A stretch of 42,029 nucleotides of DNA from an uncultured Zetaproteobacteria bacterium (GTDB lineage Bacteria; Pseudomonadota; Zetaproteobacteria; Mariprofundales; Mariprofundaceae): positions 2,671 to 44,699 of the forward strand of contig CAYLYU010000001.1 in assembly GCA_964387725.1 (NCBI GenBank). Reading direction: 5' to 3'. Positions 24,001 to 30,950 of this stretch are shown piece after piece (position 1 is the stretch's first letter; the number at the start of each line of letters is the position of its first letter). The position numbers were made by a program, and so were the translations under genes. The notes beneath the pieces were generated by a model, which had not been told where the DNA came from, did no database searches, and worked only from the letters and a program-made list of their open reading frames with translations.

Positions 24001-25281
24001 CCAACGTCGAACGGAAAGGGATTCGGCATCACGATGTAGTTTATCCAGACTGGGAAAGATAGCTTTCTGCCAAATCTCAATTTCCTTCTCACCTGAACCG
24101 GCCTTAATTATATTAACAACTGTCTCCACAACCACTTTAAGGGCAACTCTCAAAACAAAGGCATCTTGCTCAAATTCAAGGGTTTCAAGCAGCAACGACA
24201 TGACAAGCTGATTGAGTTCCTGCCGCTGTAACAGCACCAGGGTTTCAAGCAGAGCAGATGCCCTCACCTCAGGGGCATCGTCCTGATGGGCAAGTTCAGG
24301 CAACCACCTCTGCACAACATCATTCGGTGCTGAACTTAGTGCCTTAGCCAATGCCTGCCTTACAAATGGACTAGGATCAACAACCACACTGGGAATAACT
24401 TCAGCCAATTCGGCAAAGCGTCCGATATACCGCCCCAATAACTTGACTGCGTGTCTGCGAACAAACATATCATCGCCGGGTTTCGGCTCAGATAACCGTT
24501 TCTTCAGCGCAAGAAGTAATGAGTCACTTGCGATACAGGCCAATAACCCCAGTGCCTCACACTGAATCCAGATATCTTGTCTTGTCTCAAAAGCAGAACG
24601 CTGAACATATAATATAGTACTTTCGGCTATAACCCCTTGCCGGGCATCTTCAGGCAGGGCCTTGATTGCTGTTGCAAGACATCTAAACGCCTCAACGCCA
24701 ACACGTTTATCACCATCGTAAGCAAGTAAAGGCTTCAGGGTTTTTTCCAGCTCAAACCGTTTCCAGGTTTTCCTTGTTCCGTCACTCGATTCAATTTGCT
24801 CCAAAGCAAAGGCGCTTATAACTCCCAATCGCTGCAGACAAAAAGCTACTTTCTGTTCGCTTGAGGCCAATTTTTTTCTATAGCGCTCTCCAGCAGCATC
24901 AAAACCAAACCAATCCGAAAAAGACTTACGGTCAGCTGCATGATTTTCTTCAGAAGAAGCTAGTTCCCTGGCGTAATCCAAAATATGCTGCCTTCTGTCA
25001 TCATCAGTGGAACATTCAACATAGCGGCGACTGAAATGAACATATCTCTGGCGCAGGGCCTGTATCTTTTTTAGGTCTTCAGTGATCGTATGTAACAGAA
25101 AAAGAACAAGTCGTTGTGCTGCAATGGTTTCCAGAGAACGTGATTCATCTGTAGAATCGTCAGGCAGGGCTGCCCAACTTCCAAATTCTCCCATTAAATC
25201 GTCGATCAGGAGTGATTCCACCTTCAACAAACGCGGATTGATATCAAGCTCTAGAAGTTTTCTTGAAGGCTCTGCGTTCAT
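21073..25281 (-). CDS. Giant fusion: ~700-aa HEAT-repeat region + hydrophobic helix + PgsB/CapB-type amide ligase (Mur-ligase fold) + coiled-coil tail
   Basis: 1402 aa. HEAT-like repeats: DMFVRRHAVKLLGRY, DPSPFVRQALAKAL, DDAPEVRASALLETL. Residues ~708-1265 are colinear with PgsB: helix LVVFASAFLLFFVG, P-loop GTRGKSGTERL (nt 23023-23046), SKTTG, WECMGLTP, TNAFPDHEDLQGP (22714-22728), FVNGMSANE, NNRADRV, GLQNIKGTG. Its start overlaps the upstream stop (TAATG). Confidence 0.75.
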   Translation of the reverse strand: MNAEPSRKLLELDINPRLLKVESLLIDDLMGEFGSWAALPDDSTDESRSLETIAAQRLVLFLLHTITEDLKKIQALRQRYVHFSRRYVECSTDDDRRQHILDYARELASSEENHAADRKSFSDWFGFDAAGERYRKKLASSEQKVAFCLQRLGVISAFALEQIESSDGTRKTWKRFELEKTLKPLLAYDGDKRVGVEAFRCLATAIKALPEDARQGVIAESTILYVQRSAFETRQDIWIQCEALGLLACIASDSLLLALKKRLSEPKPGDDMFVRRHAVKLLGRYIGRFAELAEVIPSVVVDPSPFVRQALAKALSSAPNDVVQRWLPELAHQDDAPEVRASALLETLVLLQRQELNQLVMSLLLETLEFEQDAFVLRVALKVVVETVVNIIKAGSGEKEIEIWQKAIFPSLDKLHRDAESLSVRRWAAQAAEQVWAEIDPQACELKETLSEELRRIKPGKALRISKSRFAEVDDALFHRVLSVVAQSDFSYDVKDSRFRRSIRRGHVFGWRLWRFLHEFRNPSSDKRQGFIHTVGRIFSGRNSVPSTIMSEVTEAKVPGEPLLMSAESGWRPYLPLVDEVLSSLEHNISGKPTNIYSSEGVTKLQPPRSMIRQWMAMARLEFRFSHLARLRNWKEDDQLDADAYLKSLEDLGFKVSLTPHQYPGRPEFGADPSVTRFFPALLPLGDSDLWFRIQDYFFSVYENSMQELVVFASAFLLFFVGRHIYMNRAIAKVRKQLPLVIGGWGTRGKSGTERLKAAVFNALGYGIMSKTTGCEALFLNSYPYGKLHEFGLYRSYDKATIWEQYNLVRMAGRCKADVFLWECMGLTPSYVKILQRQWMKDDIVTITNAFPDHEDLQGPAGFNIPEVMTNFIPRSSTLLCSEEQMLPVLRDASRQLDTNFKHIGWLEAGLLTEDILQRFPYEEHPYNIALTLLLAEELGVEHDFALKEMADRVIPDIGVLKKYPEAKLQTRKLVFVNGMSANERYGCLQNWERMNFGQHDSEKDPKTWISTVVNNRADRVARSRAFAKILVEDLSADCHFLIGSNLSGLQGYIKKAWDESCKGRTLWQESDDGAHQSQGIAHQAAKLLRIPTDESKLKARLRVMLKGQGSELDLDGLLALWQEPEALHKALLEAGVKEYSEAIISFHQHSLGQYQEYQSFLGKLEQAENSGSHKSLDDEFHALQWKWFQSKLIIIEDANATGEQVIARICEGTPPGFTNLMMGLQNIKGTGLDFMYRWQAWDACYSACENLRSDDPRVANEGLLRLSSFQEFGLLSEQYVHESIEHVRHSMMGQSERFQAELNVIESNLGNAMQEVHAQLRKSSDQGRLAQMVDAVEEFFDTGDAVRRRKTANKIYKELAATRISHERASIELHKLNQRQKGGWLLSSLYALKSYIVRGSS

Positions 25282-30950: not shown

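Follow-up and report, generated by a model that had tools for sequence, protein, structure and literature searches.

A gene for a secreted multidomain protein of 1889 amino acids (aa) was analysed in the genome of an uncultured Zetaproteobacteria bacterium of the family Mariprofundaceae. The protein ends in a predicted outer-membrane beta-barrel, and its gene is part of a conserved operon that also encodes a putative polymer synthase resembling PgsB and PgsC of Bacillus. With a rough probability of 55%, the protein spans the periplasm and forms the outer-membrane part of a synthase-dependent secretion machine whose product is a polyamide. The stretch of DNA that was analysed, here called the window, has 42,029 nucleotides (assembly GCA_964387725.1, contig CAYLYU010000001.1, positions 2,671 to 44,699 of the forward strand), and the coordinates in the feature lists are positions in the window. 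Homologous loci and database homologues are referred to by L and P numbers.

The target protein and its predicted C-terminal barrel

The features on which the assignment to the outer membrane is based are as follows.

25281..30950, minus strand: target gene, an intact open reading frame (ORF) with an ATG start, coding for the multidomain protein of 1889 aa, predicted to be secreted and to end in an outer-membrane barrel
30882..30950, minus strand: signal peptide, aa 1-23 (MIRIFFQRLLFFAICLTPYVVFA, followed by EQ), the only hydrophobic segment; cleavage site read by eye
25401..26273, minus strand: 14-stranded outer-membrane beta-barrel, aa 1560-1850, modelled with long antiparallel strands, block pLDDT mostly 80-95
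25758..25874, minus strand: long predicted extracellular loop L4, aa 1693-1731, carrying RIDTDVYTTYKANHR; loop assignment from the strands
25284..25400, minus strand: conserved periplasmic C-terminal tail (GEGRMYRDFQPG...LRQRRVPQEMNN), aa 1851-1889, from the family consensus

The protein has a single hydrophobic segment (aa 4-22) followed by a cleavage site between VFA and EQ, and no further transmembrane helices. This agrees with the signal peptide proposed in an earlier interpretation of the same DNA (the sequence-only reading), whose coordinates were correct to within a few codons. The C-terminal barrel proposed there is also borne out by the AlphaFold2 (AF2) model, the fold comparison and the residue pattern, which predict an outer-membrane barrel and not a soluble domain. 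The AF2 run on residues 1171-1889 used an alignment of 20 sequences and reached a mean predicted local distance difference test score (pLDDT) of 76.6 and a predicted template modelling score (pTM) of 0.46. The top PDB fold matches of the barrel in Foldseek are 14-strand monomeric porins of the OmpG type (E ~1e-8, TM score (TMt) 0.60-0.67) with the whole of OmpG aligned, followed by OmpC/OmpF, FimD, intimin, EspP and AlgE. OmpG is the best structural match, at 10-11% sequence identity. Unlike OmpG, the target barrel is fused to a periplasmic region of 1550 aa, and OmpG has no counterpart of the conserved L4 motif and the periplasmic tail.

Residues predicted to face the lipid are rich in L, F, V, W, I and Y, and those facing the lumen are rich in R (13), S, G, T and H (6) with a net charge of +6. 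All 20 aligned family members show the hydrophobic/polar alternation, and 17 of the 20 have a net positive lumen. The mean lumen charge is about +5. The predicted periplasmic turns (2-7 aa) and outer loops (4-39 aa) follow the typical pattern of outer-membrane proteins. Sequence searches with the C-terminal half gave nothing meaningful in Pfam (20 members, E<=1) or in the PDB (profile, E<=10), and by sequence the barrel is unrelated to known porins.

The L4 motif RIDTDVYTTYKANHR belongs to the pair of stretches with the highest conservation in the family, both of which were used for the genome scan described below, and D1719, D1721, Y1726 and H1730 are invariant in the loop. L4 is a candidate constriction or gate, and the conserved tail, which has low pLDDT from about aa 1863 onward, is a candidate docking element. 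The tail is placed in the periplasm because one homologue, in a Desulfomicrobiaceae metagenome-assembled genome (MAG; L037, positions ~15,100-15,523 of that locus), carries a SPOR domain appended after the C-terminal tail of the barrel.

A conserved operon with a PgsB/PgsC-like synthase

The genes from 41620 to 21073 are all on the minus strand, and their ends mostly overlap or nearly abut. The target gene is the sixth of seven and sits in a translationally coupled operon with this gene order.

38900..41620, minus strand: CHASE2 sensor histidine kinase, 906 aa (PF05226, E=6.8e-19; kinase-core matches)
38529..38900, minus strand: single-domain response regulator, 123 aa (ORF; a Response_reg gene is at the equivalent place in L001 and L002)
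35274..38519, minus strand: membrane protein, 1081 aa, with two CapC/PgsC repeats and an extra domain of ~700 aa (PF14102, E=1.3e-39; TIGR04011)
31818..35270, minus strand: membrane-anchored protein, 1150 aa, consisting of the 830-aa family and a BNR-propeller insert (Pfam/NCBIfam matches, orthologue comparison)
30947..31831, minus strand: secreted orphan protein, 294 aa; its stop overlaps the start of the target gene; syntenic
25281..30950, minus strand: target gene
21073..25281, minus strand: HEAT-repeat and putative PgsB-like ATP-dependent amide ligase, 1402 aa (TIGR04012, HEAT_2); its start overlaps the stop of the target gene
21030..21042, minus strand: terminator-like GC hairpin with a T run, a consensus match only, just 3' of the last operon gene

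The GC content is 0.46-0.52 across the window, and because of this even base composition there is no sign of foreign DNA in the region. LolA and a FadL-type outer-membrane protein are also encoded in the window, so the host has an outer membrane.

The last gene product matches the PgsB family TIGR04012 at aa 715-1057 (E=6.2e-59), its sole NCBIfam family match, and the P-loop GTRGKSGT can be read from the sequence. It is built up by ~700 aa with HEAT repeats, a hydrophobic segment (aa 709-727), the ligase domain and a C-terminal extension of ~350 aa. The PgsC-like protein matches PF14102 in two copies with 135.8 bits against a cut-off of 27. Its two CapC repeats lie within a membrane region of ~370 aa, followed by the ~700-aa domain, for which there are no detectable relatives. 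Neither the PgsB-like nor the PgsC-like protein has relatives in the PDB.

The two proteins encoded between the PgsC-like protein and the target are orphans. Searches with the 830-aa-family partner gave no real match in Pfam or the PDB. In the window this partner carries a clean insert of 324 aa (aa 401-724; 33099-34070, minus strand) of BNR/Asp-box (Sortilin/Ycf48-like) propeller repeats, which is missing from the Zetaproteobacterial orthologue in L006. The 294-aa partner has no real match in Pfam, the PDB or PHROGs. Seven of its residues (H117, D121, R147, D159, Q186, H188 and E266) are invariant among 23 orthologues, and as a guess the H/D/H/E residues might form a site like that of a metal-dependent hydrolase.

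The operon is conserved far beyond Zetaproteobacteria. The PgsC-like, 830-aa, 295-aa and PgsB-like genes are all present in 40 of 45 loci with full flanks, and the kinase is syntenic in 38 of these 45. The PgsB-like gene follows directly downstream of the target gene (start within 600 nucleotides) in 56 of 62 loci. Syntenic loci span Zetaproteobacteria, Gammaproteobacteria, Nitrospirota, Desulfobacterota and Planctomycetota, and the conserved operon contains no glycosyltransferase.

In the locus L003 (ENA contig ctg9541l) the order is rearranged: the PgsB-like gene precedes those for the kinase, the regulator and the PgsC-like protein, and genes for a STAS anti-anti-sigma factor and an anti-sigma kinase lie in between. 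No 830-aa or 295-aa gene was detected upstream of the target gene in this locus.

Proposed cargo and mechanism

The cargo is more likely to be a polyamide of the poly-gamma-glutamate type than a polysaccharide, because the operon has a predicted PgsB/PgsC-type synthase and no glycosyltransferase. In the poly-gamma-glutamate synthase of Bacillus, polymerisation is the task of PgsB and PgsC together, and PgsA and PgsE are assigned to transport (PMC5751247). Like PgsBCA(E)/CapBCA(E) of Bacillus, the operon encodes a CapC/PgsC-like membrane protein and, putatively, a PgsB-like ligase. It differs in that these two proteins (1402 and 1081 aa) are three to seven times larger than Bacillus PgsB and PgsC, in that there is no PgsA or PgsE, and in that the host has two membranes and the operon three extra envelope proteins, including the target.

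In the proposed mechanism, the HEAT/PgsB-like ligase and the double-CapC/PgsC-like protein would polymerise glutamate, or a similar amino acid, at the inner membrane to a gamma-linked polyanion. The 830-aa-family and 295-aa proteins, which have N-terminal signal or anchor sequences, may guide the periplasmic chain or act on it. The target would be exported by Sec, and its 14-strand barrel would insert in the outer membrane as the exit pore. Approximately 1500 residues of the target would stay in the periplasm, where the beta-sandwiches and the TPR-like solenoid would form a scaffold that might reach to the synthase and guide the chain. In the Zetaproteobacterial proteins, the SPOR domain on its flexible linkers may tie this scaffold to the glycan strands of peptidoglycan.

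The predicted Arg/His-rich lumen of the target barrel, net positive in most of the homologues examined, would suit a polyanion, as does that of AlgE.

Comparison with exopolymer porins

The operons for cellulose, poly-N-acetylglucosamine, Pel and alginate each encode an outer-membrane-associated TPR (tetratricopeptide repeat) protein and a porin (PMC9384988). The sequence-only reading had assigned the target to the architecture of BcsC, PgaA and PelB from this group. The layout stands: like these proteins, and like AlgK and AlgE together, the target has a Sec signal, a periplasmic alpha-solenoid and a C-terminal outer-membrane barrel, and its gene is likewise in an operon with an inner-membrane polymer synthase. 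A closer kinship is contradicted by several results: there is no sequence homology, the barrel has 14 strands compared with 16 in BcsC and PgaA (PMC9384988) or 18 in AlgE, and the predicted partner synthase is of the PgsB/PgsC amide-ligase type and not a glycosyltransferase. Also unlike BcsC, PgaA and PelB, the target has a short solenoid (~280 aa) among six or seven beta-sandwich modules and an alpha/beta module, its operon is regulated by a CHASE2 two-component system, and its family has peptidoglycan-binding inserts in some lineages. The target is best described as working like these exporters and not as a member of their class.

For the same reasons it is very improbable that the target is a divergent BcsC/PgaA/PelB porin exporting a polysaccharide from a glycosyltransferase encoded elsewhere. 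In favour of such a porin are the shared order of parts, with a signal peptide first, then a TPR-like solenoid and finally the barrel, and the presence of AlgE among the fold matches. However, the C-terminal half has no sequence match in Pfam (E<=1) or the PDB (E<=10), there is no TPR profile match, the strand number differs from that of PgaA and BcsC, and an operon without a glycosyltransferase, with its PgsB/PgsC-like genes, has been kept across phyla. The cluster also differs from the stalk cluster sfz.

The stalk cluster sfz of Zetaproteobacteria was considered as a possible identity for the operon and ruled out, as sfz encodes BcsB-like, GT2, GH10 and CotH proteins (PMC8250860). A link to the formation of Fe-oxide stalks is unsupported: there is no record from Mariprofundus ferrooxydans among the 80 loci listed, and most carriers of the operon are not known as stalk formers.

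SPOR domain, solenoid and peptidoglycan-binding inserts

Two features lie in the central part of the protein.

28794..29012, minus strand: SPOR peptidoglycan-binding domain (predicted), aa 647-719 (PF05036), with low-confidence linkers at aa 635-645 and 726-732
27903..28745, minus strand: TPR-like alpha-solenoid of ~16 paired helices, aa 736-1016 (~280 aa), AF2 block pLDDT ~86-96

The SPOR-like domain of the sequence-only reading passed both the profile check and the fold comparison. Its match to PF05036 (E=1.2e-11; 45.2 bits, cut-off 21) covers profile positions 3-75 of 76, and there are weaker NCBIfam/PDB matches of the segment to RlpA, FtsN, DedD and CwlC. In the AF2 model the order of secondary structure elements at aa 649-720 is beta-alpha-beta-beta-alpha-beta, which is RNP-like. 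The unit superposes on the SPOR domain of RlpA bound to denuded glycan (6i09; TMt 0.83, root mean square deviation 1.4 A) and on that of CwlC (1x60; TMt 0.80), and the beta-1 motif VQVGAF can be read from the sequence.

The target shares the Pfam SPOR profile with FtsN, DamX, DedD, RlpA and CwlC, and the predicted RNP-like fold superposes on the SPOR domains of RlpA and CwlC. Unlike in these five proteins, the SPOR domain of the target is an internal insert with flexible linkers in an 1889-aa outer-membrane protein, and within the target family it is confined to the Zetaproteobacterial branch and a few others.

The TPR-like helices proposed earlier were recovered in the fold but not as profile matches. 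In Foldseek the solenoid resembles consensus-TPR superhelices (8chy, TMt 0.47, and 9qhb) and LapB with probability 1.0 and TMt 0.41-0.47, and it also resembles the TPR of AspH. Pfam TPR/Sel1 profiles gave no match at E<=0.1 in the target protein and none at E<=0.05 in five homologues.

The occupancy of the family alignment drops to 12-20% over aa 631-720. The SPOR segment is present in three of 29 database homologues (P0001-P0003), and the other 26 bridge the flanks with a linker of 17-86 residues. A hidden Markov model-based scan was made for inserts of 60 residues or longer, and their comparison with Pfam gave a SPOR insert at family position 627 in six further Zetaproteobacterial genomes. 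The scan gave seven Pfam SPOR-positive inserts, one of which is not attributable to a locus and is probably the Oceanococcus insert at position 627. Judged from these alignments, the SPOR domain is a lineage-specific insert of Zetaproteobacteria and not a feature of the family.

Other lineages have other modules. An OmpA-like insert (PF00691, E down to 8e-22) with a visible NRRVE motif is found at position 457 in Sulfurirhabdus, Sulfuricellaceae, Hydrogenophilus and P0015, with L012, L016 and L021 as loci carrying it. A LysM insert is at position 1118 in a gammaproteobacterial MAG (L065). Together with the SPOR domain after the barrel in the Desulfomicrobiaceae homologue, three unrelated peptidoglycan-binding modules have been inserted at four sites in the family. 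Their recurrence means that the predicted peptidoglycan tethering evolved more than once and can be dispensed with; the majority of family members carry no insert of this kind. That three module types were inserted independently at different sites also argues strongly, if indirectly, for a periplasmic position near the wall for both the long N-terminal region and the C-terminus.

This topology bears on the idea that the target is an autotransporter-like adhesin whose C-terminal barrel translocates the N-terminal beta-sandwich modules to the surface. A C-terminal barrel preceded by a long beta-rich region, and the EspP and intimin barrels among the fold matches, would fit an adhesin of this kind. 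However, the SPOR, OmpA-like and LysM inserts in the N-terminal part and the SPOR domain after the barrel imply that both ends are periplasmic. The barrel also has 14 strands compared with 12 in type Va, neither a beta-helix passenger nor a match to an autotransporter profile is present, and the gene is tightly linked to a polymer synthase. The adhesin is the least plausible of the explanations considered.

Conduit or anchor

The main rival to an exporting role is that the target is a periplasmic scaffold or envelope tether anchored in the outer membrane, and not a conduit. The barrel would then serve only as an anchor, the product of the PgsBC-like proteins would be periplasmic or attached to the wall, and the target would organise this layer or staple the outer membrane to peptidoglycan. 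The recurrence of peptidoglycan-binding inserts, the very large periplasmic part with ~1500 aa of binding-type folds, and the conserved long L4 and tail, which could occlude the barrel, are all consistent with a tether. In Bacillus anthracis, moreover, polyglutamate is attached to peptidoglycan.

However, most family members lack a peptidoglycan-binding insert, and a conserved, polar, Arg-rich lumen is needless for a mere anchor. Enzymes of the gamma-glutamyltranspeptidase (GGT) family process polyglutamate in Bacillus, and an anchoring enzyme of the CapD/GGT type is found beside the cluster in only one of 85 loci. The exception is L002 (Azospirillum sp. sgz302134), where the cluster has genes for an amidase and a gamma-glutamyltranspeptidase close by on its downstream side (positions 19302-22258 of that locus). 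A pure anchor or tether therefore appears unlikely, but it deserves more weight than the other alternatives.

Several observations weigh against secretion of a polyamide through the barrel. The lumen is net negative in three of the 20 homologues. The presumed closure of the barrel and the width of its pore derive solely from the Foldseek alignments to OmpG, and the C-terminal AF2 model, built from a shallow alignment of 20 sequences, has a pTM of 0.46. The final strand has an aromatic end but is followed by 39 more residues, which makes an unusual beta-signal, and a 14-strand barrel with a conserved loop of 39 residues could be plugged. On the side of the synthase, the PgsB match of 199.6 bits is below the NCBIfam equivalog cut-off of 222.7, and the monomer used by the ligase could therefore differ from glutamate. 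Searches in Pfam, NCBIfam and the PDB gave no PgsA/CapA-type match in any operon protein.

Distribution and significance

A search of 5.8 billion database proteins yielded 29 relatives, 1087-2129 aa in length. Their names are without exception uninformative (the named ones are hypothetical), and their Pfam domains are limited to SPOR and, in one, OmpA. A scan of one genome per species, based on an alignment of 12 sequences, found at least 121 genomic relatives, and the best 80 of the 121 were fetched for the study of loci. A relative from a Mariprofundaceae MAG is 82% identical to the target, which by itself makes it very probable that the window stems from this family. The barrel is at the extreme C-terminus in every full-length relative, and the barrel domain alone has 521 representatives at 50% clustering.

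The carriers listed include Thiomargarita, Parabeggiatoa, Thiodiazotropha, Methylococcaceae, Crenothrix, Methylovulum miyakonense, Nitrosomonas and Sulfuricellaceae. Others are Zetaproteobacteria, Nitrospirota, Geobacter, Desulfobacterota including the cable bacterium Electrothrix, and, among Planctomycetota, Pirellulaceae, Stieleria marina and Kuenenia.

A wider proposal, offered tentatively, is that the target is the outer-membrane exit of an undescribed class of synthase-dependent secretion with a poly-gamma-glutamate-type polyamide as product. The class would be spread over several phyla with two membranes, among them giant sulfur bacteria, cable bacteria, methanotrophs, iron oxidisers and planctomycetes. 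In Zetaproteobacteria, the SPOR domain would fix the exporter at sites with denuded glycan, such as the division site, and might give localised extrusion of a carboxyl-rich, metal-binding polymer.

The synthesis of poly-gamma-glutamate is understood almost entirely from Gram-positive bacteria. The literature searched contained no polyglutamate route across an outer membrane and nothing relevant on a polyglutamate exporter in double-membraned bacteria or on a protein combining SPOR, TPR and barrel. The operon, with its three orphan envelope proteins including the target, is a concrete candidate for such a route. It is unannotated yet widespread, with at least 121 species-level genomes and ~500 protein clusters of the barrel without informative names. 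If the proposal is true, the solution of a TPR scaffold plus a porin arose independently for a polymer that is not a carbohydrate. The repeated gains of SPOR, OmpA-like and LysM modules offer a natural test case for the reasons and the sites at which such machines become attached to the wall. Among the carriers are many organisms of environmental importance that live in chemical gradients, where a metal-binding polyanionic coat could matter.

The homologues nearest to those named Parabeggiatoa and Thiotrichaceae have an extra beta-sandwich-like duplication of ~150 aa near the N-terminus (P0004, family position 297). P0004, from the Parabeggiatoa group, also has a tandem array of SDSIRKY(A/P)QTD(T/A)IA at family position 1084, in the variable linker before the C-terminal half.

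Remaining modules of the target and other genes

An exact database look-up of the target protein found no record. Outside the SPOR domain there is no sequence match in Pfam, NCBIfam or the PDB, and the whole protein against the PDB gave weak SPOR matches only. The remaining modules are described from AF2 models, of which the run on residues 24-1172 with the family alignment had a mean pLDDT of 86.4 and a pTM of 0.83.

30069..30833, minus strand: N-terminal pair of beta-sandwich (jelly-roll-like) domains, aa 40-294 (AF2 model mcaa2396e716c, block pLDDT ~85-95)
29163..30053, minus strand: helical bundle (aa 300-397) and alpha/beta module (aa 398-596) (AF2; kept across the family)
27483..27887, minus strand: beta-sandwich domain, aa 1022-1156 (AF2; kept across the family)
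27090..27383, minus strand: helical segment, aa 1190-1287 (AF2 model m6a011e35f598)
26427..27080, minus strand: pair of beta-sandwich domains, aa 1291-1508; after them comes a disordered linker, aa 1511-1554 (AF2)

The sandwiches at aa 40-294 show a weak Foldseek likeness to sandwiches of the Cry-toxin, malectin and CBM types, and the helical bundle and alpha/beta module (aa 300-596) have no profile match in Pfam. The sequence-only reading had described the first ~640 aa as beta-rich, which holds for aa 40-294, but the following part is mixed alpha/beta with helices at aa 300-397. The further beta-sandwich modules that it placed after the solenoid correspond to those modelled at aa 1022-1156 and 1291-1508.

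Elsewhere in the window, a divergent COX1-like ORF of 452 aa (2624-3982, minus strand), matching PF00115 with an E-value of only 9e-18, adjoins CtaA and is separate from the canonical COX1 at 7816-9486.

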